Positions 29,128 to 54,894 are shown, counted from the stretch's first letter. The stretch is DNA of 64,000 bases from an uncultured Clostridium sp. (GCA_946402315.1 CAMIWC010000004.1:17509-81508); one strand, 5' to 3'. Made by a program: numbers and translations. Notes: generated by a model from the sequence alone, not told the origin.

Positions 29128-32076
29128 ATGGATGAGATATTAGAATTAGTAAATAATCATATTGATGAAGTACTAGCTAATAGTGAATTGCTTCAAAAAG
29201 TATGTAGTTATCTTAATACTAGTTTTAGTCTAACTAAAGAAAATTTAGCAACTAATCCTAATATTTTAAGAATTAGTGATTTCATAATGCCTAAAATAGA
29301 AGAAGATCCTTCTATTGTTTTATTGTTTCCATATGATAATATAGATGATACTTTAGCTAATACTTATTTAAGAAGCGCAGTTATGAATCATTTTATTCCA
29401 ACCTATGAACAAATAAAAGAAAACCCTTCAATGGGTCCACATATACCTATAGGTGTTTTAGAGAGATTATTAAGAACTAATCCTAGAATGATTAAGTTTT
29501 TTCCTAAAAGCGAAATAAAAAATTATGCTAATAAAGTAGAGTTCGTTGCAACAGAAGAAGAACTATTAGAGGTTCCAGAACTATGTGAATTTCCAGGAGT
29601 TATGGAAAGATCTATTGAGGAGAATCCTCATTTATTAAAATATCTTCATACTGTTATAGATACTTTTGTTATTTATGATGCTTTAGAACAAGTAGAATTA
29701 ACAAGACAAGACTTTTTAGATAATCCATTCTTATGTACTGATTCTACTATTTGTGAAGGAAAATATCTATATTATTATAGGTCTTTAACTACAGAACAAA
29801 AAATAGTTATAGTAACTGAACTAATTAGTTTAGGAAGAATTGATGAAATAAGTGAATTACCATTCTTTAACCATACACTTAATCCAATGCTTGAAGATGA
29901 TGCAGATATTGATAAAGTAGTTAGATTAATAAAGGTAATAACACCAGACTTAAGTAATGCAGAGAATAATAATGTTAATGATGAAAATTGGTCAATATTA
30001 AGTGCTATTATAGATGGAATAGGTGCTTATAGATATCGTCTTGGAAAAAATACTTTTAAATTTAAAAGTGCTGATGTATTAATAGATAGATTTGAAAAAT
30101 ATTTCTTAGAGATGAATCCTGAAAACGAGGATATATTATTAGGTATTCTAACTAGAGAAGTAGTAGATTTTATGGAAGCTACTCCTGAAGATGATGTTGA
30201 AGAATCAGTAAGAATTAGTTTATTAAATATATATAGAAAGTATGAAAACAATAATAGAACTATGCCTACTGAAGGGGAGGATAGAGCATTAATTACTGAA
30301 ATCTGTAATTATATGTTAAACTTCCATCGTGATAAATTTATTGCTTCAGAAAGAGTTGCAGTAGAAGAATTAATTAATAAGTATTTCTCTTTAAAACAAA
30401 CTAGAATCCAAAGCATTCTTCATAGTAAAAGAAGAAATAGAGTTATATCAAGACTTAGAGATTTCAAAAATCGTGGAGTAGATTGTTATGACGATTTTGA
30501 TAGATTAAAGATAACACTAGAATTAAGAGAATTAGATCCTAATTTTAAAGATAGTCAAATAGAAGAAATATATAAACATATAATAGATACTTTACTTGAA
30601 ACAGGAAATATTAATACCGACGGATTATATAAGTACTTAGAAGAAACTATTTTTGGAGAAAGAGAAATAATTCCAGCATACTTAAAAATAGGATTAAAAG
30701 AATGTACTGCTAAAATAGTGGATATTATAAATAAAGAAATAAATGAATCTGCTAGAGCTATCAGATTAGCTCCAGAAGAATCAGCAATAACACTTAGAGA
30801 TAGAGCTAAATATACTAGAGAATTTGTTCCTAAAAATCTTTGTATGACTAATAAAGGAATAACAGATAGTACTTTAGCTAGATTAATAGTATTACTTATG
30901 GATGATCCAGATAGATGCAGAAAAGCAACATTAGAAATAGATAAAGCTGAACCTTTAAGAAGAATTATACCTTTCTTTGGATCAATTCCGAAAACAAAAG
31001 AATTATCTGTTGAAATGTTAATGGATATACTTGCAAATTATCCAAGAATAGAACGTAGAATTAACATGAATGGCACAAGTAAAAATCTAGAATTTTGTTT
31101 TGAAAAACTAGTAGGATTTGCTACTGATTATGGTATGTCATCTAGTTTACTTAGAACTATTATTACACCTAATATAGTAGGTTATATAGGAGAACATAAT
31201 GTAGGTAAATATGCTTTATTCTATTTAGAGCATTTATTTGATAGACAAGATTCTACTATACCTATTGTTAATGGAGAAACAGGAAGATATACATATAAAT
31301 CTAGTTTCAAAGATCAAGATCGTATGGTAATAGGGAAAATGTATGATGATAGTTGTTTAGATTTAAATGATTCTTCAGGATATGATACTTTCTTTGAATG
31401 CCTTGCTGGTCCACATGGAGATGCCATTTTAATTAGAGATATTACTAGTAATGAATTAATTGGAAGAGTACTTGCTATAAGAAGAGGAAATCTTATTCAA
31501 TTACAATTAAGAAACTTAGATGGTAGAATTGATGAAAAAGAATATCAATTATTAATTAGTGAAATTGGTAAACAAATGATGACTGAAGCTCAAGAAAAAG
31601 GAGATAATCTAGAAGCAATTGTTGTCGCAACGGCACCTCATACCGGAAAAAGAGAAGATAGGTTAAAAACTGAATTTCCGCATGCTGACTGGGGAGGTTT
31701 CTATGAAATGGTTATTCCTCAAGAAGATGTTGAATTTAATTTTACTGTTAAACCAGTAGTAACTTATCATCCACAAAGAGAAAAAATAAGAGAACAAGCT
31801 ACTGATCAAGAATTAACTAGATTAAAAGCTATAAGTATTAAAATGATGCCTGATTCAATGGCAAAAGAAGATCTTGAACGAAATTTTGAACCGGTTATTT
31901 TTGAAGGTACTGGTAATCAAATATTATTAGGAGAAGATTGGTACATTATTCATAATAATGGAGAAATAGTAGAAGAGGTAATTGTACCAACTAAAGATAA
32001 TAGACAACAAGTAGAAATAGGCGTTGTTAAAGAAAAACTAGGATTAAGTAAAGGAGCTGGTACTCATTATGGTTAA
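29128..32076 (+). CDS. Large hypothetical cytoplasmic protein (982 aa)
   Basis: It has a strong SD (AGGGTGAT), no TM or signal sequence, and no NTPase motifs. Short NP-containing motifs recur in the first ~220 aa. Confidence 0.7.
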   Translation: MDEILELVNNHIDEVLANSELLQKVCSYLNTSFSLTKENLATNPNILRISDFIMPKIEEDPSIVLLFPYDNIDDTLANTYLRSAVMNHFIPTYEQIKENPSMGPHIPIGVLERLLRTNPRMIKFFPKSEIKNYANKVEFVATEEELLEVPELCEFPGVMERSIEENPHLLKYLHTVIDTFVIYDALEQVELTRQDFLDNPFLCTDSTICEGKYLYYYRSLTTEQKIVIVTELISLGRIDEISELPFFNHTLNPMLEDDADIDKVVRLIKVITPDLSNAENNNVNDENWSILSAIIDGIGAYRYRLGKNTFKFKSADVLIDRFEKYFLEMNPENEDILLGILTREVVDFMEATPEDDVEESVRISLLNIYRKYENNNRTMPTEGEDRALITEICNYMLNFHRDKFIASERVAVEELINKYFSLKQTRIQSILHSKRRNRVISRLRDFKNRGVDCYDDFDRLKITLELRELDPNFKDSQIEEIYKHIIDTLLETGNINTDGLYKYLEETIFGEREIIPAYLKIGLKECTAKIVDIINKEINESARAIRLAPEESAITLRDRAKYTREFVPKNLCMTNKGITDSTLARLIVLLMDDPDRCRKATLEIDKAEPLRRIIPFFGSIPKTKELSVEMLMDILANYPRIERRINMNGTSKNLEFCFEKLVGFATDYGMSSSLLRTIITPNIVGYIGEHNVGKYALFYLEHLFDRQDSTIPIVNGETGRYTYKSSFKDQDRMVIGKMYDDSCLDLNDSSGYDTFFECLAGPHGDAILIRDITSNELIGRVLAIRRGNLIQLQLRNLDGRIDEKEYQLLISEIGKQMMTEAQEKGDNLEAIVVATAPHTGKREDRLKTEFPHADWGGFYEMVIPQEDVEFNFTVKPVVTYHPQREKIREQATDQELTRLKAISIKMMPDSMAKEDLERNFEPVIFEGTGNQILLGEDWYIIHNNGEIVEEVIVPTKDNRQQVEIGVVKEKLGLSKGAGTHYG

Positions 32077-33090: not shown

Positions 33091-33143
33091 TAATATATTA
33101 AGTAATATATTAATAGTATGATATAATTAAAATAGGTGATAAT

Positions 33144-34193
33144 ATGAAAGAAGTAAAAAAGGGTACTAAGAAAAAGAGTAGTACAACACCACCTAAGAAG
33201 ACTACTAAAAAGAAAGTAACTAATAAAAAGGTTACTCAAACTAAGAAAAAAGTAACTGAGAAGAAAGTTACTCCTGCAAAGAAAGCAGTTTCTAATAAGA
33301 AACAAATTAAAAGAGGGTTCACATTAATAGAGTTATTAGCAGTAATAGTAATTTTAGGCTTATTAATGGCAATTGCTATACCAGCAGTAACTAGATATAT
33401 TAATCAATCTAGAATGAAAACATTAGTATCAAGTATTAATGGTTATTTAGATGCTGCTACTATAGCTGTAAATGATAATGATTTTGGATCTATGTCTAAT
33501 CAAGATAATATTTATTATATTCCTGTAAGTAATATCAAGGATGATTCATGTATTAATCTTGAAAAAGGTGGATTAGATCCATATGGTAACTTTGTAGAAG
33601 CTTATGTAGTAGTTCACTACAATGCATCAGAGTACAAATATGATTATTATTTTACTTTTATAGATGATGCTGGTTATGGTATGAAGTTAACAAAAGTAGA
33701 TGAGATTAAGAGTAACGGAAAAGGACAAATAGTTAATCCTAGTCCAGTTAATCCATCAACTTCTGATTCTAATCAAATAACTATTCAAACTATAGATGAC
33801 GCAGTACCACATATATTAGGTTCTGATAGTTGTAGTGCTGCTAATAGTACTGTTGCAGGCGGATTTACACCAATTAATCCACCAATAAACCCACCAACAG
33901 GTGGAGGAAAATTCTATGTTAGAAGACAAATTAATGCTTGTACGACTAAAACATTTGAATTTAATATGGGAAGAGCTAAAATAAAATTTAGTGCTTGGGT
34001 TGAAACTGAAAACAATACTGATAACTGGCGTATTGGACCAACTGGAAAAGTTATAACAGGAACAGATACTAGAAATTTTGAAATAGATGGAGTAACTGGA
34101 GACTCATATATAACTACAGGAAAGACATATACTACTACAAATAATGGTGTACTTTTCCCATCAATCGTATGTAATGATCCAGTAGGTTCATAG
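33144..34193 (+). CDS. Pilin-like protein: 58-aa Lys-rich leader, prepilin G|FTLIE motif, conserved head and a Cys-containing C-terminal domain
   Basis: KRGFTLIELLAVIVILGLLMAIAIPA is a class III (prepilin) signal with Gly at -1, Phe at +1 and Glu at +5. An extended -10 promoter (TGaTATAAT) lies at 33119-33127. Confidence 0.8.
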   Translation: MKEVKKGTKKKSSTTPPKKTTKKKVTNKKVTQTKKKVTEKKVTPAKKAVSNKKQIKRGFTLIELLAVIVILGLLMAIAIPAVTRYINQSRMKTLVSSINGYLDAATIAVNDNDFGSMSNQDNIYYIPVSNIKDDSCINLEKGGLDPYGNFVEAYVVVHYNASEYKYDYYFTFIDDAGYGMKLTKVDEIKSNGKGQIVNPSPVNPSTSDSNQITIQTIDDAVPHILGSDSCSAANSTVAGGFTPINPPINPPTGGGKFYVRRQINACTTKTFEFNMGRAKIKFSAWVETENNTDNWRIGPTGKVITGTDTRNFEIDGVTGDSYITTGKTYTTTNNGVLFPSIVCNDPVGS

Positions 34194-34246
34194 AATTATA
34201 AGCATTGTGTTGCTATTTAATAATATAATTATAATGGGGTGATAAT

Positions 34247-35260
34247 ATGAAAGATAGTAAAAAAAGTACAAAAAAGAAAAGTGTTAAACCTACATCAAAG
34301 AAGACTACAAAAAAAACTACTAAGAAAGCAGTTAAAAAGACAGTTAAAAAAACTGCTGCTAAAAGAGTGAAAACAAAAAAAGGATTTACTTTAATAGAGT
34401 TATTAGCTGTAATAGTAATATTAGGATTATTAATGGCTCTTGCTATTCCTTCTATTACTAGATATATAAATCAATCTAGAATGAAAACTTTAGTAACTAG
34501 TATTGATGGATTTGTAGGTGCTGCTAGAGTTGCTGTAAATGATAATGATTTAGGATCAATGTCTGATGGTAATAAAATATTTTATATACCTGTTAATAAT
34601 AAAAAAGATGATTCATGTGTTTCTCTTGAAAAAGGTGGTACTGATCCATTTGGAGAATATGTTGAAGCTTACGTAGTAGTTTATTATAATGCTGCTGAAT
34701 ATAAATACGATTATTATTTTACATTTATAGATTCAGCAGGTTATGGAATGAAATTAACTAAGAGTGATGAAATTAAATCAAATGGAAAGGGACAAATTGT
34801 AAATCCTAGTCCAATAAATCCTTCAACAAGTGATTCTAATACTATAACTAGTCAAACAATTAATGGTGCGACACCTTATGTATTAGGAACTGGTAGTTGT
34901 AATGCTCAACAAAGTACTCCTGTAGTAATATCTGGTGGTGGTGGTAGTAATCCATCTACTCCTGCTGGAACATTTAAAGTAAGTATTAAACTAAATATAT
35001 GTAATATTAATACAAAAGAGTATACAGTTCCAAGTTCAAATATGAAATTTAGTACTTGGGTAAATAGTAGTGGTAATACTGAAGGATGGACAATAGATTC
35101 TCAAAACCGAGTAGTTTATTATGCATTCGATGGATTCTATTCATTAGATGGAGTAACTGGTAATTCAACTATTACTTTAGACAATACTTACACGACAACA
35201 ATGCATGATGTAAATCTTCCACAAGTATCTTGTAATCAAAACCCTTGGGATAGACCGTAG
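34247..35260 (+). CDS. Pilin-like protein, a tandem paralog of 33144-34193 with a 46-aa Lys-rich leader
   Basis: It carries KKGFTLIELLAVIVILGLLMALAIPS and the same head (NDNDLGSMS...YYFTFIDSAGYGMKLTK) and C-terminal domain. A terminator hairpin lies at 35323-35346. Confidence 0.8.
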   Translation: MKDSKKSTKKKSVKPTSKKTTKKTTKKAVKKTVKKTAAKRVKTKKGFTLIELLAVIVILGLLMALAIPSITRYINQSRMKTLVTSIDGFVGAARVAVNDNDLGSMSDGNKIFYIPVNNKKDDSCVSLEKGGTDPFGEYVEAYVVVYYNAAEYKYDYYFTFIDSAGYGMKLTKSDEIKSNGKGQIVNPSPINPSTSDSNTITSQTINGATPYVLGTGSCNAQQSTPVVISGGGGSNPSTPAGTFKVSIKLNICNINTKEYTVPSSNMKFSTWVNSSGNTEGWTIDSQNRVVYYAFDGFYSLDGVTGNSTITLDNTYTTTMHDVNLPQVSCNQNPWDRP

Positions 35261-35359
35261 TATTAAATTATTATTGCTATTTAATTAAAAATGTATTATT
35301 ATATAAGTGCATCGAGTGGAAGATTTCTTCCACTTTTTATATTATTTAGAGAGGTGTTT

Positions 35360-35617
35360 ATGGAAGAAAAATTAATAAACCTTATTAATCCTAGTATTAA
35401 GGATTTAAAAGTATGGGTAGATTCTATTAAAGTAGAACAAGAAGAAAATGAAACTTTTTTAAGAATAGCTTTAGATGCAGATTATATAATTGATCTTAAT
35501 ACTGTAGTTAAAGCTACAAGAATTATTAATCCAATACTAGATAAGGAAGATTTAGACTTAGATAATTATATGTTAGATGTTTATGCTAAACCAAAAGGAG
35601 ATAAAGAAGATGAATAG
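35360..35617 (+). CDS. rimP: Short RimP-like ribosome maturation factor (N-terminal domain only, 85 aa)
   Basis: It occupies the position directly upstream of nusA and overlaps it. The sequence ETFLRIALD...DNYMLDVYAKPKG resembles the RimP N-domain ending at the L-E-V-S-S-P-G position. The start is set at 35360, behind a GAGAGGTG SD. Confidence 0.5.
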   Translation: MEEKLINLINPSIKDLKVWVDSIKVEQEENETFLRIALDADYIIDLNTVVKATRIINPILDKEDLDLDNYMLDVYAKPKGDKEDE

Positions 35618-41387: not shown

Positions 41388-42053
41388 ATGAATGAAAATA
41401 TGACACCAAACATGAATCAACCAGAACCGGTAGCAGTACCAACTACACAACCACCAAAGAAAAATACCTCAGTTGTTATTATCTTATTGATTATTGTATT
41501 ATGTGCTGCAGCAGCAGGAGGAATCTGGTATTTAGGAAATAATAAAGCAAAGGATAAGGAAAAAGAAGAACCAACACCTACAACACCAGCAAATCCAACA
41601 AACCCAACAGATCCAACTACACCTACTGACCCAACGACTCCAACTGATCCTACAACTCCTACAGATCCAACTACACCAACAGATCCAGCTACTCCAACAC
41701 CATCTGGAACTAAAACATTATCTTGTACACAAGAACTTGGAGAATACAAATCAGTTACAGAATATGTATTTACTAATAGTGTATTATCCGTAATTAGAAT
41801 TAGTGTAGTATGGAATTTCTCTAATTTAGATGATAATACTATTCAAACTTATAAAACATTAGATATGTGTTCTTCAATGGGAAATCCATCTGAGGGAGAA
41901 GAATATACACTTAAAAATTGTAAAGCAACATGGTCTGGAAAAATTTTAACTATATCTTATGATATGGAAATTCCTGATGAATATAAAGTTGTTACAATTG
42001 ATGCGTTACAAACAGAATTAACTTCTGGTGATCAAACTTGTACAATAAAATAA
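41388..42053 (+). CDS. Membrane-anchored exported protein with a PTDPTT repeat linker and a Cys-containing C-terminal domain
   Basis: An N-terminal TM helix (VVIILLIIVLCAAAAGGIWYL) is followed by five PTDPTT units and then a globular domain with 4 Cys. A terminator lies at 42053-42077. Confidence 0.65.
   Translation: MNENMTPNMNQPEPVAVPTTQPPKKNTSVVIILLIIVLCAAAAGGIWYLGNNKAKDKEKEEPTPTTPANPTNPTDPTTPTDPTTPTDPTTPTDPTTPTDPATPTPSGTKTLSCTQELGEYKSVTEYVFTNSVLSVIRISVVWNFSNLDDNTIQTYKTLDMCSSMGNPSEGEEYTLKNCKATWSGKILTISYDMEIPDEYKVVTIDALQTELTSGDQTCTIK
41604..41693 (+). repeat. Five tandem 18-bp coding repeats (PTDPTT) with synonymous differences between units
   Basis: The units are ccaacagatccaactaca / cctactgacccaacgact / ccaactgatcctacaact / cctacagatccaactaca / ccaacagatccagctact. 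Confidence 0.85.
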
Positions 42054-42115: not shown

Positions 42116-43054
42116 ATGGAAGACTTTAATGAAGAATTAGAAAAATTATTAAATGATTTAGAAGACGTAAATGGTAAAAAAGAATTGTCTGAATATTTAA
42201 AATATCTTAAATATCAAAAAAATTATTCTGATTATACTATTATTAATTATGGTGATGATATAAAAGAATATTTATTATTTTTACATGAAAAGAACATTAA
42301 TCTTTATAAGATTACCTATGAAGAAATAAGATTATATCAAATAAATCTAAATGATAAAAAAGATATTAATTCTACTATATCTAGAAAGATAAGTGCCTTA
42401 AGAGGTTTTTATAAATACTTAGAAAATGAACATAAAATGGAAAATAATCCTTTTTCATTAATTAATCTTCCTAAGAAAGATAAAAAACTACCTAGATTTT
42501 TCTATTACAATGAATTAGAAGAATTATTTAATACACCTAAACTTAATACTGCGACTGGTCAAAGAGATAGATTAATATTAGAAATGTTATACGCTACAGG
42601 AGTACGTGTAAGTGAACTTGTTAATATAAAAGTATCGGACATAGGAGATCATACTATTAAGATTCTTGGTAAAGGTAATAAAGAAAGAATAGTAAGATAT
42701 GGAGACTATTGTGAAGAAATATTAAATATGTATTTAGGAGATGGACATTATAAATTAAATTCATCTAGTGAATATTTGTTTTTAAATAATAGAGGAGGAC
42801 AACTTACAGATAGAGGAGTAAGATTTATTCTTGATAAGATTATAGAAAAGACTACTATTGAGAAAAAGATTTCTCCACATATGTTAAGACATAGTTTCGC
42901 AACTCACTTACTTAATGAAGGATGCGATATTTTAACAGTGCAAGAACTACTTGGGCATGAGAGTTTAAGTGCTACTGCAATATATACTCATGTTACGAAT
43001 GATAGATTAAAAGAAGTATATTTTAAAACTCATCCTAGAGCTAAGAAAAAGTAG
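42116..43054 (+). CDS. XerC/XerD-family tyrosine recombinase
   Basis: It has an N-terminal SAM-like core-binding domain and the catalytic residues in ATGVRVSEL, HMLRHSFATHL and LGHESLSATAIYTHV. Confidence 0.85.
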   Translation: MEDFNEELEKLLNDLEDVNGKKELSEYLKYLKYQKNYSDYTIINYGDDIKEYLLFLHEKNINLYKITYEEIRLYQINLNDKKDINSTISRKISALRGFYKYLENEHKMENNPFSLINLPKKDKKLPRFFYYNELEELFNTPKLNTATGQRDRLILEMLYATGVRVSELVNIKVSDIGDHTIKILGKGNKERIVRYGDYCEEILNMYLGDGHYKLNSSSEYLFLNNRGGQLTDRGVRFILDKIIEKTTIEKKISPHMLRHSFATHLLNEGCDILTVQELLGHESLSATAIYTHVTNDRLKEVYFKTHPRAKKK

Positions 43055-43092
43055 TATAATAAAATTAGAATAGAATAAAAGGAATGAATAGT

Positions 43093-44559
43093 ATGGCTCA
43101 AACTAAAAAGAATAATAGTAAAAAGAAAAAGATTAACAGTACTAAAAAAACAGTTAAGAAGACTAATATTAAGAAAAAAGTAGAGAAAAGAGGTTTTACT
43201 TTAATAGAACTTCTTGCAGTTATAGTAATTCTTGGCCTTTTAATGGCGATTGCTCTTCCAGCAGTTACAAGATATATTACACAATCTAGAAAAAAGACTT
43301 TAATGAAGACAATAGATAACTTTATAACTTCTGCTATGACTAGTACAAATGATAATGATTTTGGTTCTATGTCTGATCCTAATAAAATATTTTATATACC
43401 AGTACATAATGAAAAAGATAAGTCATGTGTTGAATTAGAAAAGGGTGGAAAAGATCCATTTGGTAATTGGAAAGAAGCGTATGTAGTAGTAGCTTATAAT
43501 CCTGATGAATATAAGTATGAATACTATTTTACTTTTTATGATGATTCTGGTTACGGAATGGAGTTAACAAAATTAAATGATATTAAAATGTCTAGTATAA
43601 CTAATCCAACTAGTATGAAAGAAGATAATATAACTGGACAAACAATTAATGGTAGAGAGATAAATCTTTTAACTGAAAGTTGTAATGCCAGAGATGCAAT
43701 AGTAATTGGCTCAAATGCACCTATATCAGAAAGAATATATTGGGCACTTCAAGACAATGATGCCAATGGTACGGATGAAACATTAGTATTTTCAAAATAT
43801 TCTGTTAACGGTACACATAGTGGAGATTTTGCAGGTTCAACGATATTTGGTAATTATAGTAATGTTCCATGGATAAATGGTAGTATATCTTCTAATTTAA
43901 GTAAAGATGTTACAAAAGTTAAAGTACAAAGCAGAATATCTCCAAGAAATATGAGTTTCTGGTTTTATGGAGTAGGATATAATGCGGAGTCATTCTATGC
44001 TGATTTAAGAAATATAGATGTTTCTAATGTAACTGCGATGGGAAGTATTTTTAATAGTGCAGGATATAATGCTAAAACTTTTTATTTAAATGTTAATAAT
44101 TGGAATACTTCAAAATCAACCAGTTTTGGATCAGCATTTACAAATGCTGGATTAAGATCTCAGTCATTTAGAATTGTTGGATTAAGTAAATGGAATACAT
44201 CTAGTGCAACATCTTTTACATATATGTTTACTAATGCTGGAAATGTTGCCACAACCTGGGATATTGGAGACATAAGTCAATGGGATACATCTAAGGTAAC
44301 TAATATGTATAATATGTTTAGTTGTACCGGGCAAAATGCTTCAACATATAAGTTGGACTTAAGTGGTTGGGATACTTCTAAAGTAACAAATATGACTACA
44401 ATGCTTAATAATGCTGGTACAAGAGCAACTAATTGGGAAATTAAAATACCAAAAACAAATGGAAATGGTATTAATAATACAACAACTGCAATGTATGGAA
44501 GTACTACATCTGTTGTAGCTGTTCCTAATGCAGGAAGAAGTTTTACAATAGCAGAATAA
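43093..44559 (+). CDS. Pilin-like protein with a 34-aa Lys-rich leader and a C-terminal DUF285/BspA-type repeat domain (5 repeats)
   Basis: It carries KRGFTLIELLAVIVILGLLMAIALPA and the same head as 33144/34247 (NDNDFGSMSD...YYFTFYDDSGYGMELTK), followed by repeats W(N/D)TSKVTNMxxMF. The start is set at 43093 (MAQTKK), homologous to the start of the next gene. Confidence 0.8.
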   Translation: MAQTKKNNSKKKKINSTKKTVKKTNIKKKVEKRGFTLIELLAVIVILGLLMAIALPAVTRYITQSRKKTLMKTIDNFITSAMTSTNDNDFGSMSDPNKIFYIPVHNEKDKSCVELEKGGKDPFGNWKEAYVVVAYNPDEYKYEYYFTFYDDSGYGMELTKLNDIKMSSITNPTSMKEDNITGQTINGREINLLTESCNARDAIVIGSNAPISERIYWALQDNDANGTDETLVFSKYSVNGTHSGDFAGSTIFGNYSNVPWINGSISSNLSKDVTKVKVQSRISPRNMSFWFYGVGYNAESFYADLRNIDVSNVTAMGSIFNSAGYNAKTFYLNVNNWNTSKSTSFGSAFTNAGLRSQSFRIVGLSKWNTSSATSFTYMFTNAGNVATTWDIGDISQWDTSKVTNMYNMFSCTGQNASTYKLDLSGWDTSKVTNMTTMLNNAGTRATNWEIKIPKTNGNGINNTTTAMYGSTTSVVAVPNAGRSFTIAE

Positions 44560-44581: not shown

Positions 44582-46597
44582 ATGACTCAAACAAAAAAGA
44601 ATAATAATAAAAATAAAAAAAATGTTAAGAAGACTCATGTTAAGAAAAACTCACCAACAAGGAAGATTCAAAAAGAGAAAAAGGGATTTACTTTAATAGA
44701 ACTTCTTGCGGTTATAGTAATTCTAGGTCTTTTAGTTGCTATAGCTCTTCCAGCGGTTACTAGATATATTACACAATCAAGGAAGAAAACTCTATTAAAA
44801 ACAATGGATAGTTTTATAAGTGCTGCAATGACTAAGGCTAATGATAATGATTTTGAATCTATGTCTGATCCAACTAAAATATATTATATTCCTGTACATA
44901 ACGAGGTTGAAAAATCATGTGTTGGTCTTGAAAAAGGTGGAATAGATCCATTTGGTAATTGGGTAGAAGCTTATGTAGCAGTAATATATAATCCAGATGA
45001 ATATAAATATGAATATTATTTTACCTTCTATGATGATGCAGGATATGGAATGGAATTGACTAGGGAAGATGAAATAAAAACAAGTAGAATAACAAATCCA
45101 ACTGAAATGAATCATACTACCATTACTCAACAAACAATAGGTGATAGAGAAGTAAATGTGCTCGAAATAGGTAGCTGTAATTCTGATCATACGACAATAG
45201 TAGATACTCCAGTAGAAGTTACTAATACAATATACTGGGCTCTACAAGATAATGATTCAAATGGAACAAATGAAACTTTAGTGTTTTCTAAAAATTCTGT
45301 TACTGGAACATATAGCGGAAATTTTTTGGGAACAAAAGCATTTATAAATAGTACAGAAATACCATGGATAGGAGCGGGCTTTAATTCTTCGAATAACAGA
45401 AGTAAAGATGTATCTGTTATAAAAGTAGAAAGCACTATAGCTCCGACATCAACACAGTTTTGGTTTGATGGGGTTGGTTATAATAGTACTTCACTTAATA
45501 TAGATATTAATAAACTTAACACTTCAAATGTAATCAGTATGGATTCAATGTTTTCTTATTTTGGATATAATGTGACGAATTTTAGGTTAGATCTTAGCAA
45601 TCTAAAAACTTCAAAAGTAACAAATATGAAGAATATGTTTGCAGGAGCTGGATATAATTCAACAACATTTAGGTTGGTTTTGAAAAATTGGAATACATCC
45701 AAAGTTACTGATATGTCTCGCATTTTTAATATTACAGGAAGAAATGCAAATTCATATGTTATTGAGGGTTTAAATAGATGGAATACATCTAATGTTACCA
45801 ATATGGCTAGTGCTTTTTATATGGCGGGTAATGCTGCTACAACATGGGATATTGGTGATATTAGTAATTGGAATACATCTAAGTTAAATAATATGATGTC
45901 GATGTTTTATCAAGCTGGTGCTAATGCAACTTCGTTTAAAATAGATGTAGGAAAATGGAATGTTTCAAATGTTACAACAATGAATCAAGCATTTCGTTAC
46001 GCTGGTCTTAATTCTTCTTCGTGGAGCATTGGTGATTTGAGTAATTGGAATATAGGTAATGTAACGGATATATGTGGATTGTTTGCTGATACTGGTAAAA
46101 ATTCAGCAATGTGGAGTGTTGGTGATTTAAGTAATTGGGATACATCAAAAGTAACAAATATGACTTGTATGTTTGATTATTCTGGATATAAAACTACAAA
46201 TTGGTATGTTGGTGATTTAAGTAATTGGGATACATCAAAAGTAACAAATATGACTTGTATGTTTGATTATTCTGGATATAAAACTACAAATTGGTATGTT
46301 GGTAATTTAAGTAATTGGAATACGTCAAAAGTAACAACAATGAATAATATGTTTTGGCTTGCGGGAGGACAATCAAAATCTTTTGAATTAGATATTAGCG
46401 GATGGAACACATCAAAAGTATCAAATATGTCTAATATGTTTAGGCAAACTGGCTTTGGAGCAACAACATGGAAAATAAAAATACCAAAAACAAATGGTAA
46501 TGGAATTAATAATACTACAACAAAAATGTATGGAAGTTCTTCAACTGTATATGCCGATCAACCTGATCCTGGAAGATATTTTACTCTAGCAGATTAA
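44582..46597 (+). CDS. Pilin-like protein with a 35-aa Lys-rich leader and a C-terminal DUF285/BspA-type repeat domain (11 repeats)
   Basis: It carries KKGFTLIELLAVIVILGLLVAIALPA, the conserved head, and 11 copies of the W-N/D-T-S-K-V-T-x-M-x-x-M-F repeat. The C-terminal tail (KIPKTNGNGINNTTT) is shared with 43093-44559. Confidence 0.8.
   Translation: MTQTKKNNNKNKKNVKKTHVKKNSPTRKIQKEKKGFTLIELLAVIVILGLLVAIALPAVTRYITQSRKKTLLKTMDSFISAAMTKANDNDFESMSDPTKIYYIPVHNEVEKSCVGLEKGGIDPFGNWVEAYVAVIYNPDEYKYEYYFTFYDDAGYGMELTREDEIKTSRITNPTEMNHTTITQQTIGDREVNVLEIGSCNSDHTTIVDTPVEVTNTIYWALQDNDSNGTNETLVFSKNSVTGTYSGNFLGTKAFINSTEIPWIGAGFNSSNNRSKDVSVIKVESTIAPTSTQFWFDGVGYNSTSLNIDINKLNTSNVISMDSMFSYFGYNVTNFRLDLSNLKTSKVTNMKNMFAGAGYNSTTFRLVLKNWNTSKVTDMSRIFNITGRNANSYVIEGLNRWNTSNVTNMASAFYMAGNAATTWDIGDISNWNTSKLNNMMSMFYQAGANATSFKIDVGKWNVSNVTTMNQAFRYAGLNSSSWSIGDLSNWNIGNVTDICGLFADTGKNSAMWSVGDLSNWDTSKVTNMTCMFDYSGYKTTNWYVGDLSNWDTSKVTNMTCMFDYSGYKTTNWYVGNLSNWNTSKVTTMNNMFWLAGGQSKSFELDISGWNTSKVSNMSNMFRQTGFGATTWKIKIPKTNGNGINNTTTKMYGSSSTVYADQPDPGRYFTLAD
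46121..46300 (+). repeat. Perfect 2 x 90-bp tandem duplication inside the DUF285 repeat region
   Basis: 46121-46210 and 46211-46300 read identically base for base (ggtgatttaagtaattgggatacatcaaaagtaacaaatatgacttgtatgtttgattattctggatataaaactacaaattggtatgtt). Each copy encodes GDLSNWDTSKVTNMTCMFDYSGYKTTNWYV. Confidence 0.95.
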
Positions 46598-53589: not shown

Positions 53590-54894
53590 ATGTCTTATAA
53601 TATTTTACCTGCTGACACTTATGTAGTCGTTAATAAGACTATTATTACAGAAGTAGATCGTCGAATTATAACTACTTTATATCAACCAATTATTGGTTCA
53701 CGTGCTACATCTTTATATTTTACTTTAGTAGATGATTTAAATAGAGATGAAATAATGTCTAAACAAGAAACGCATCATCATTTATTGTCTACTATGCAAA
53801 TAAAATTAGAGAATTTAGTTATAGCTCGTGAAAAATTAGAAGCCGTAGGTCTTCTTAAAACATATGTTAAAAAAGAAGATAATATAAATAGTTATGTTTA
53901 TATATTATATTCTCCTATGTCAGTAGAAGAATTTGTTAATCATCCTATATTAAATGTTGTTTTATATAATAATGTAGGAAAAAATGAATATAATAAGATT
54001 CTTAATTATTATAAAATGCCAAGAATAAGTCTTAAAGATTATGAAGATATTACTAGTAACTTTAATAGTGTATTTGGTAGTGTTAATGGAAGTATTAATA
54101 CTATTTCTGATGATATTGTTAATAAGACTAAAGAAGATATTAAACTTAGTAATGTTATAGATATGAATATGTTAATATCTAGTATTCCTTCTAATTTAGT
54201 ATCTGAAAGATGTTTTAATGATGAAGTTAAAGAACTAATTAATCAACTAGCATTTATTTATAAAATAGATGATATGAATATGCAAATGATAGTACGTAAT
54301 AGTATTAATGAAAAAGGACTTATTGATAAGAATGAATTAAGACTTAATTGTCGTAAGTATTATCAGTTTGAAAACGGTGGATCTCTACCTACATTAATTT
54401 ATGCTAAACAACCAGATTATTTAAAGAAACCATCTGGAGATACATCTAATAAAGCTAAGATTATATATACATTTGAAAATGTAAGTCCATATGATTATTT
54501 AAAGAGTAAATATAGTCATGGTGAACCTAGTGCTAGAGAATTAAAAATAATTGAAGAGTTAATGGTAGATTATAAGATGCCTCCTGGTGTAGTTAATGTA
54601 CTTATATCTTATGTATTAAAAGTAACTAATCAAAAGTTTATTAAAACATATGTAGATGCAGTTGCTTCTCAATGGTCTAGACTTAAGATTGAAACAGTAG
54701 AAGAAGCTATGGAAGTAGCTCAAAAAGAACACAATAAGCTAAAAGGAGTTATCAATAAGAATAGTACAACTAAGACTACTAAAACTAAAGATGTGGGTAC
54801 TTTACCTTCATGGTTTGATGAAAAACTAGATTCTAAAGAAATGTCTCCTGAAGAACAAAAAGAAATAGATGAGATGTTTAAAGAATTCAATTAG
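53590..54894 (+). CDS. Replication initiation/membrane attachment protein (Bacillus DnaB / DnaD-domain family)
   Basis: It has the N-terminal winged-helix-like region (RRIITTLYQPIIGSRATSLYFTL) and a C-terminal DnaD-like repeat region (MPPGVVNVLISYVL...VASQWSR). Confidence 0.7.
   Translation: MSYNILPADTYVVVNKTIITEVDRRIITTLYQPIIGSRATSLYFTLVDDLNRDEIMSKQETHHHLLSTMQIKLENLVIAREKLEAVGLLKTYVKKEDNINSYVYILYSPMSVEEFVNHPILNVVLYNNVGKNEYNKILNYYKMPRISLKDYEDITSNFNSVFGSVNGSINTISDDIVNKTKEDIKLSNVIDMNMLISSIPSNLVSERCFNDEVKELINQLAFIYKIDDMNMQMIVRNSINEKGLIDKNELRLNCRKYYQFENGGSLPTLIYAKQPDYLKKPSGDTSNKAKIIYTFENVSPYDYLKSKYSHGEPSARELKIIEELMVDYKMPPGVVNVLISYVLKVTNQKFIKTYVDAVASQWSRLKIETVEEAMEVAQKEHNKLKGVINKNSTTKTTKTKDVGTLPSWFDEKLDSKEMSPEEQKEIDEMFKEFN

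Follow-up and report, generated by a model that had tools for sequence, protein, structure and literature searches.

Long lysine-rich leaders on a family of modular pilin-like proteins from uncultured Bacilli

Prepilin leaders are usually seen as short and uninteresting tags, and their length once served to define the classes of pilins. Type IVa leaders have 6–7 residues and type IVb leaders 15–30 (PMC6201914). An 18-residue leader in Streptococcus sanguinis has already been termed 'very long', in a source that describes leader length as 'variable' and reports type IVb pilins in Proteobacteria only (PMC10191384). A stretch of 64,000 nucleotides from an uncultured Clostridium sp. (GCA_946402315.1, CAMIWC010000004.1:17509-81508; hereafter the window) raises the question of how far such a leader can be extended. 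Two adjacent genes in the window, here called A and B, were predicted to encode pilin-like proteins with leaders of 58 and 46 residues, rich in lysine. Are leaders of this size translated, how do they grow, and what becomes of them once they are made?

The answer that we favour, with moderate confidence, is that A and B, together with two paralogues in the window (C and D), are modular pilins in which the n-region of the class III signal is hyper-extended, disordered and polybasic, grows by in-frame duplication and is most likely cut off by a prepilin peptidase. The modular architecture itself is already known; the 34–58-residue lysine-rich leader placed on it is the new part.

Class III signals, leaders and protein architecture

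Gene A (33144-34193) encodes 349 residues and the adjacent gene B (34247-35260) encodes 337, as given by the listing of open reading frames (ORFs) and by the raw sequence; the G+C content of the window is 27%. A six-frame motif scan located two more paralogues with the same head motifs and with leaders of 34–38 residues, gene C (43084 or 43093 to 44559) and gene D (44573 or 44582 to 46597), each with two possible ATG starts. All four genes, and the parts of them described below, lie on the plus strand. The scan and the alignment bear out the original prediction that four family members in the window share one head.

In all four proteins the junction between leader and mature part reads G|FTLIELLAVIVILGLL, that is, Gly at -1, Phe at +1, Glu at +5 and a hydrophobic stretch of about 20 residues (G|FTLIELLAV in A and B). 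Of the signatures of type IV pilins and class III signal proteins (PF07963, TIGR02532, IPR012902), PF07963 matches the four at 29.8–32.2 bits (cut-off 21.2) and TIGR02532 at 31.1–33.1 bits (cut-off 16.3), in agreement with the class III signal proposed for A and B. Across the family alignments the three residues and the hydrophobic stretch are invariant.

The leader of A (33144-33317) comprises 58 codons, of which the last encodes Gly(-1). Protein A begins with MKEVKKGTKKKSSTTPPKKTTKKKVTNKKVTQTKKKVTEKKVTPAKKAVSNKKQIKRG, followed by FTLIELLAVIVILGLLMA; its leader contains 23 Lys and 1 Arg (40% Lys, charge +22). The leader of B (34247-34384) comprises 46 codons with 21 Lys and 1 Arg (46% Lys, charge +21) and continues as G|FTLIELLAVIVILGLLMA, as in A; both ORFs are as originally described. 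Counted from the second ATG, the leader of C (43093-43194) has 34 residues, 14 of them Lys, and that of D (44582-44686) has 35, 13 of them Lys; from the first ATG, at 43084 and 44573, respectively, they would have 37 and 38. With these lengths and 37–46% Lys, the four leaders are far outside the range described for type IVa and type IVb pilins. A literature search found no description of long or lysine-rich prepilin leaders (35–58 residues, about 45% Lys). Lysine richness as a general property of the proteome was rejected, since a ranking of 30-residue segments by basicity across the 69 ORFs of the window puts these leaders in the first four places, and only they are so basic.

The architecture behind the leader was modelled for A with AlphaFold2 from a 48-sequence alignment. 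The model shows a disordered leader (predicted local distance difference test, pLDDT, about 45), a helix at residues 61–110, a four-stranded head at residues 122–184 (pLDDT >90), a linker, and a beta-domain at residues 256–334. A second model, of the helix and head alone, agrees with the full model. The mature N-terminus of A (33318-33473), which is covered by PF07963, TIGR02532 and the model, holds Phe(+1), Glu(+5), the hydrophobic alpha1N and the remainder of an alpha1 of about 50 residues. It is followed by the globular pilin head (33507-33835), placed by the alignments and the model, with its four-stranded beta-sheet and Cys136 and Cys230, and by the C-terminal beta-domain (33909-34193), with Cys266 and Cys343 at its borders. 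The mature part of B (34385-35260) aligns as the same succession of helix, head and C-terminal beta-domain, with cysteines at 124, 218, 252 and 329. Conserved motifs in the head are NDNDxGSMS, EKGG and YYFTFxDxxGYGM; Cys136 is invariant and Cys230 nearly so. When the pilin module was compared as a profile with solved pilins, it matched them over alpha1N only, the best match being PilE1 of S. sanguinis (8pfb).

The C-terminal stretch of about 100 residues in A and B had been likened to a cysteine-bracketed D-region. The bracketing is indeed present (Cys266 and Cys343), but the stretch is an extra module of the kind found in modular pilins and not a D-region; the D-region-like disulphide is probably Cys136–Cys230, within the head. 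This module of A is common only to B and to its orthologue P0002. Pfam at E<=1 returned nothing for the C-terminal domains of A and B, and nothing for the isolated leader.

Genes C and D carry other modules. Mature C (43195-44559) consists of the pilin module and DUF285/PARCEL repeats (PF03382, 4.8e-24; TIGR02167), and mature D (44687-46597) of the pilin module and a larger DUF285/PARCEL module (PF03382, 1.8e-58; TIGR02167, 1.3e-40), in which Tandem Repeats Finder (TRF) detects 90-nucleotide repeats at 46029-46337. PARCEL/DUF285 proteins of Mollicutes and Listeria (PF03382, TIGR02167) have C-terminal modules of the same repeats; however, they are usually lipoproteins or Sec-secreted, whereas in C and D the repeats are grafted on a pilin module. 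Varied C-terminal modules are also found among 866 homologues (E<=1e-3), including DUF285, BspA leucine-rich repeats (LRR; PF13306), Hint (PF07591), Flg_new (PF09479) and LamG (PF13385). A–D are modular type IV pilin-like surface proteins of an uncultured, low-G+C member of the gut Bacilli, and comprise a leader, an alpha1 of about 50 residues, a beta head and a variable C-terminal module. The family adds to the list of modular pilins known from animal-gut bacteria, with modules of the PARCEL, Hint, LRR and LamG kinds.

The modular design of pilins was described for PilB of S. sanguinis and surveyed across bacteria (Raynaud et al. 2021, PMC8179133). Pilins of the S. sanguinis PilB/PilC type resemble A–D in their class III signal, in the fusion of alpha1 and a beta head to a variable C-terminal 'effector' module, in the many modules per family (BspA-type LRR included) and in their Bacillota host. 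They differ in three respects. Firstly, the leader of PilB has 7 residues, against 34–58 residues with 37–46% Lys here. Secondly, they are encoded in a pil operon, whereas the genes of this family are scattered. Thirdly, no structural match of the A–D head to a solved pilin could be detected, and the place of A–D in a filament is a putative one.

Four homologues of the pilin head (P0033, P0037, P0039 and P0041) have their modules fused to Hint/intein-like domains (PF07591, PF14890, PF13403), an arrangement that brings to mind cassettes of the polymorphic-toxin or self-cleaving type. In further relatives the modules are of the BspA LRR, Flg_new, LamG or PBP5_C-like kind.

Translation of the long leaders

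The 173 leader codons contain no stop in the coding frame, while the other two frames contain 8 and 33; the probability of a stop-free frame at the leaders' own base composition is about 3e-7. The Shine-Dalgarno sequence of gene A, AGGTGA (33134-33139), lies 4 nucleotides 5' of the ATG at 33144, and that of gene B, GGGGTGA, lies at 34236-34242, likewise 4 nucleotides from its ATG; these sequences (aGGTGAtaatATG and GGGGTGAtaatATG) are strong and are found where they had been placed by the original prediction. In C and D, the Shine-Dalgarno-like AAAGGA and AAAGAG, respectively, are spaced correctly for the second ATG, and the database gene call for C (P0020) begins MAQTKK. The start context GGTGATAAT / AGGTGATAAT and the start are also present ahead of long-leader homologues from other samples (L089 and L091). 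Lysine is encoded by AAG in 39% of cases in the leaders, as compared with 27% in the ORFs of the window (p=0.02), and the longest run of A in the leaders is 8, as expected for a translated polylysine tract.

The earlier claim that there is no internal start in the lysine-rich region stands in part. No in-frame ATG, GTG or TTG exists inside the leader of A, and those of C and D contain only the ATG at codon 4. The leader of B, however, has an in-frame GTG (34367-34369), which sits 6 codons 5' of Phe(+1) and lacks a recognisable Shine-Dalgarno sequence. On the evidence of frames and start contexts, translation of A, C and D does begin at the long starts, and a mis-assigned or dual start concerns gene B only.

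A mis-assigned or dual start would mean that initiation occurs near the cleavage site, and that the long leader is either not made or not always made. Initiation at the GTG of B would yield a 6-residue leader, (M)KTKKG, which resembles the canonical leader of the family. Furthermore, a 1.7-kb contig from the Joint Genome Institute (JGI) that is 94% identical to gene B and rimP (L007) has neither gene A nor the 22 opening codons of leader B, ATG included. Its 5' region (1-300, compared with 33144-34312 of the window) has a divergently oriented membrane-protein gene (AI-2E-like) instead, and the JGI annotation places the start of gene B at the GTG. This contig could be the product of a natural deletion or rearrangement, amounting to a long-to-short conversion, but it could also be an assembly chimera. 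Two starts are also found in Geobacter PilA. Against this, the GTG of B has no Shine-Dalgarno sequence while the upstream ATGs have strong ones, the leader frames stay open, leaders A, C and D offer no comparable start, and dozens of homologues share the long leader behind the same Shine-Dalgarno sequence. A mis-assigned or dual start is therefore considered very unlikely. For practical purposes, pilin finders that assume a leader of at most 30–35 residues could miss or mis-start such genes, and the JGI call of the B orthologue took the internal GTG.

The PilA of Geobacter sulfurreducens has leaders of 10 and 29 residues, both cleaved by PilD, and the two isoforms differ in cellular role (Richter et al. 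2012, as summarised in PMC6201914). It resembles this family in having two leader lengths and provides a precedent both for an importance of leader length before cleavage and for the ATG/GTG pair of gene B. Nevertheless, it differs in that the two lengths come from two starts of one gene and not from evolutionary expansion, the leader is not polybasic or of low complexity, and the host is a diderm.

Leader length across relatives

The 116 closest homologues have a median leader of 7 residues, typically 5–8 (MKKNNKG, MKKMNKKG), and long leaders occur among them only in the window's own proteins and in three or four others. The long state is seen more widely when the search is extended. Residues 1–95 of A served as the query for phmmer, run exhaustively against 1.84 billion representatives. 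Among the best 150 matches, 133 were newly returned proteins bearing the motif; leaders of at least 20 residues were found in 49 of these, of at least 30 in 39 and of at least 40 in 13, with a maximum of 52. A typical long leader in these matches reads MEKKKxTKKxxKKTTKK...KKKKG|FTLIELLAVIIILG. The heads of most long-leader proteins tested (40/45) are distant homologues of the head of A.

A third set was collected independently of the leader, with the leader-free mature part of one long-leader homologue as the query, and returned 117 full-length orthologues. Their leader lengths are bimodal: 80 have fewer than 15 residues (median 6), 31 have 25–49 (median 35), and only 5 have 15–24. The long leaders have 44% Lys and 14% Thr, begin with MEKKK in 14 of the 31 and end in KKKKG in 10. 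In every one of the 31, the residue at -1 is Gly or Ala, that at +1 is Phe and that at +5 is Glu. The mature parts of the two leader classes measure 431 and 434 residues and have a similar net charge. The two states are interspersed, as in a protein with a 31-residue leader that is 85% identical to one with a 5-residue leader, and they also occur together within single metagenome-assembled genomes (MAGs). The long leader as a genome-wide trait was rejected on account of this mixture within MAGs.

In the wider family the long leader is a recurrent alternative state. Among these modular pilins of abundant uncultured gut Bacilli, leaders fall into two well-separated states (about 6 and about 35–58 residues) on otherwise identical proteins. 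The short leaders of the closest homologues and the wider recurrence of the long state point beyond the original prediction, which had dealt with the long leaders of a single locus. What is conserved in the leaders is composition, not sequence. Together with the lack of a Pfam match for the isolated leader, this leaves a sequence-specific form of the previously suggested 'histone-like' peptide unsupported.

The manner in which leaders grow can be read from the window itself. Leader A contains an in-frame 36-nucleotide tandem duplication (33204-33284; TKKKVTNKKVTQ / TKKKVTEKKVTP), for which TRF gives a period of 36, about 2 copies and 77–82% matches; the alignment with B has a matching gap. This in-frame duplication accounts for the 12 extra residues of leader A relative to leader B. 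Leader C also has an in-frame repeat, of 21 nucleotides in 2.2 copies (43105-43150). Over the Shine-Dalgarno sequence and the first 25 or so codons, A and B are 75% identical, and C and D are 78% identical. These shared leader 5' ends indicate that each pair inherited its long leader through tandem gene duplication. Growth of the extension takes place by in-frame duplication and by slippage of DNA rich in lysine codons, and its loss is as easy.

Growth of this kind could be neutral. At 27% G+C, a short lysine-rich leader (MKKNKKG) is A-rich and would duplicate and slip, and the expansions would drift since the leader is discarded. The tandem duplications in leaders A and C are what such a process would leave behind, and the conservation of composition without sequence, the fast switching between close relatives, the 5–8-residue leaders with which the nearest homologues manage, and the indistinguishable mature proteins of both leader classes are also in its favour. 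However, slippage predicts a decaying tail of lengths, whereas the observed distribution has a trough at 15–24 residues and a second mode at 30–39. The stereotyped ends of the long leaders, the presence of a long leader in 4/4 paralogues of the window, and frames that remain open although the probability of a stop is about 8% per codon also argue against it. A neutral by-product is a possible explanation, although on this evidence an unlikely one; if it were true, the family would be a clean natural example of slippage inflating a cleaved n-region.

The existence of two discrete states, of about 6 and about 35 residues, suggests that the long state is selected. Bimodality, stereotyped ends (MEKKK..., ...KKKKG) and open frames argue that the long state is more than slippage debris. 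Selection would act in the cytoplasmic phase that precedes cleavage, through membrane association, through the timing or efficiency of processing, or through translation of the 5' end, and would leave the mature protein unaffected.

Slippage could also act on expression. Poly(A) tracts that gain or lose nucleotides would frameshift the gene, so that the locus would switch on and off in the manner of mycoplasma surface proteins. The leaders do contain several runs of A5–A8, the PARCEL/DUF285 repeats of C and D are typical of variable surface proteins of Mollicutes, and the gene immediately 5' of C encodes a tyrosine recombinase. Yet the enriched AAG codons interrupt the runs, of which the longest is 8, and the 94%-identical JGI contig has the same A-tracts. 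No frameshifted variant was seen (the one N-terminally truncated homologue that was examined owes its truncation to a scaffold gap), and there are no inverted repeats around C and D. A contingency locus is extremely unlikely.

Probable processing, possible roles and genomic setting

In the pathway that we envisage, the leader of A–D would stay in the cytoplasm, as the positive-inside rule predicts, while alpha1N would insert into the membrane and the head and C-terminal module would be translocated. A prepilin peptidase would most likely cut after Gly(-1) and discard the leader. The mature protein could then enter a type IV filament by way of alpha1 and would display its C-terminal module there: in A and B a small cysteine-bracketed beta-domain, in C and D a set of PARCEL/DUF285 repeats. 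The cleavage step, the entry into a filament and any role of the extension are all inferred.

Cleavage is favoured, indirectly, by the retention of Gly or Ala at -1, Phe at +1 and Glu at +5 in 31/31 long-leader homologues and by the presence of a peptidase in a related MAG. In motif scans of 83 related loci, operons with PilB, PilT and PilD turned up only in true Bacillales, in which the match is limited to the helix, and a pilC-pilD pair was found in one MAG (L031). In the latter, a T2SSF protein (3.1e-51) is directly followed by a prepilin peptidase (A24_N_bact, 2.2e-33; Peptidase_A24, 4e-14), 7 kb from a family pilin, and the DnaD-like protein of this MAG is 54% identical to that of the window. 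This suggests that the lineage can process prepilins. The locus (L031:908-3091) comes from a chicken-gut MAG that is labelled 'Muribaculaceae' yet has 30% G+C and Bacilli-like genes. Its pilC gene and bifunctional prepilin peptidase gene lie directly upstream of a dnaD-like/dnaI pair; the dnaD-like homologue of the window (53590-54894) has no adjoining pilC-pilD.

Several observations weigh against the reading of A–D as processed pilins with a functional extension. No gene for a prepilin peptidase, ATPase or platform protein was found in the window or within the 10 kb that adjoin it on the right, and the pilin genes of the family are scattered among housekeeping genes and do not lie in pilus operons. 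In the literature, experimental cleavage of a leader of more than 30 residues was not found. The predicted pilin head fared only partly as expected: the model has a four-stranded sheet, but Foldseek against the PDB gave no match at E<=0.001 for the full or the helix-plus-head model, and hence none to solved pilin heads. As a result, the designation 'pilin fold' rests on topology and on the sequence similarity of alpha1 only, and the head is either a divergent or an unsampled pilin head. Compensation of the leader's charge by the mature part was rejected, since mature charge and length are alike in long- and short-leader homologues. Finally, sequence assigns no specific function to the leader extension.

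Some of these observations would be accommodated if the long-leader proteins were not cleaved, as in the second alternative of the original prediction. They would then stay in the membrane as bitopic proteins, having on the cytoplasmic side a polybasic tail for the binding of anionic lipid or nucleic acid and on the outside the head and an adhesin module, and long and short leaders would correspond to two fates, a surface anchor and a filament subunit. The absence of a peptidase gene in or near the window, the position of the genes outside pilus operons and the lack of documented cleavage of leaders above 30 residues are in keeping with this, and bimodal lengths with both states within MAGs would fit two fates. 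On the other hand, a plain anchor would have no need of the residues at -1, +1 and +5, which are kept in all 31 long-leader homologues, and a peptidase and a platform protein are encoded beside a family member in the related MAG. Moreover, a 29-residue leader is cleaved by the PilD of Geobacter. For PilD of Pseudomonas aeruginosa, Strom and Lory reportedly found that cleavage depends little on leader residues apart from Gly(-1). An uncleaved protein is regarded as improbable, and removal of the leader remains the preferred reading.

Two known kinds of extended leader offer themselves for comparison. Type IVb pilins (TcpA, BfpA, CofA) also have leaders that exceed the type IVa length, and these are removed by a dedicated prepilin peptidase. 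Their leaders, however, have 15–30 residues and are not polylysine, and their genes are proteobacterial and clustered. The +1 residue of type IVb pilins is usually not Phe. An assignment of A–D to type IVb was rejected on the basis of Phe(+1), the Bacilli hosts, the polylysine leader of more than 30 residues and the scattered genes.

The extended signal peptide region (ESPR) of autotransporters and two-partner secretion proteins (PMC2805444, PMC3153244) is likewise an N-terminal extension that precedes the normal signal peptide of large surface adhesins, and it is thought to act in targeting or translocation and not on the mature protein. In contrast to the leaders of A–D, where an extension conserved in composition only precedes a class III signal, the ESPR is a conserved motif on Sec type I signals of Gram-negatives. 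The leaders are not ESPRs, as Pfam gave no ESPR match in the full proteins, nor in the isolated leader at E<=1.

If the extension has a role, it might help the precursor to associate with the membrane or anionic lipid, affect how promptly or efficiently processing occurs, or give translation an unstructured A-rich start; all of these are speculative. A long state with a role would represent a new layer of control over adhesin-bearing pilins before their assembly. It is tempting to go further and to regard the polylysine leader of about 35–58 residues as a discrete, selected and switchable module that gives modular pilins of gut Bacilli a second behaviour. This behaviour could be delayed or conditional processing, an uncleaved anchored adhesin with a lipid- or nucleic-acid-binding tail, or the release of a polycationic peptide, and the bimodality and the long/short toggling would reflect selection on it. 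This extension of our reading is offered tentatively, and we think it unlikely to be correct in full.

Among the matches listed, the hosts of the family are uncultured gut MAGs with 25–31% G+C, labelled as Bacilli, Tenericutes, Erysipelotrichaceae or Bacillales and obtained from samples of rumen, chicken, rabbit, mouse and human origin; they include one circular 1.31-Mb genome and one Candidatus Onthousia. A metagenome scan with protein A gave one weak and irrelevant match. A further locus from the same European Nucleotide Archive assembly as the window (ERZ12289775, where the window is part of the metagenome-assembled contig NODE_355; L054) has pilins that belong to another family. In a Bacilli MAG from the Hadza gut (L019:1975-12700), five tandem prepilin-type genes encode proteins of about 680–690 residues with leaders of 6–14 residues, and so form an extensive array of paralogous large modular pilins.

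The C–D pair has a XerC/XerD-like tyrosine recombinase gene directly upstream (42116-43054). Its product matches TIGR02224 at 328.8 bits, slightly below the cut-off of 335, and PRK00283 at 282.8 bits, above the cut-off of 279. An inversion switch operated by this recombinase was considered and rejected, as inverted repeats flanking C and D were not found. Between a lexA-adjacent gene and the recombinase gene, an ORF at 41388-42053 encodes a membrane-anchored protein of 221 residues, with no family assignment, that contains a low-complexity (TPTDP)n repeat (18-nucleotide period, 6.7 copies, 41580-41699).

Gene B is followed by a terminator-like hairpin and T-run on the plus strand (35314-35345), which is likely to mark the end of the A–B unit. 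A mechanically called ORF (35291-35617) overlaps the hairpin itself (35314-35335). The start of rimP is probably the ATG at 35360 (MEEKLINL...), which matches an 85-residue RimP_N gene call in a related locus (L001). On the other side of the pair, between rpmF and gene A, lies an ORF of 982 residues (29128-32076) for which Pfam gave no match at E<=0.01.

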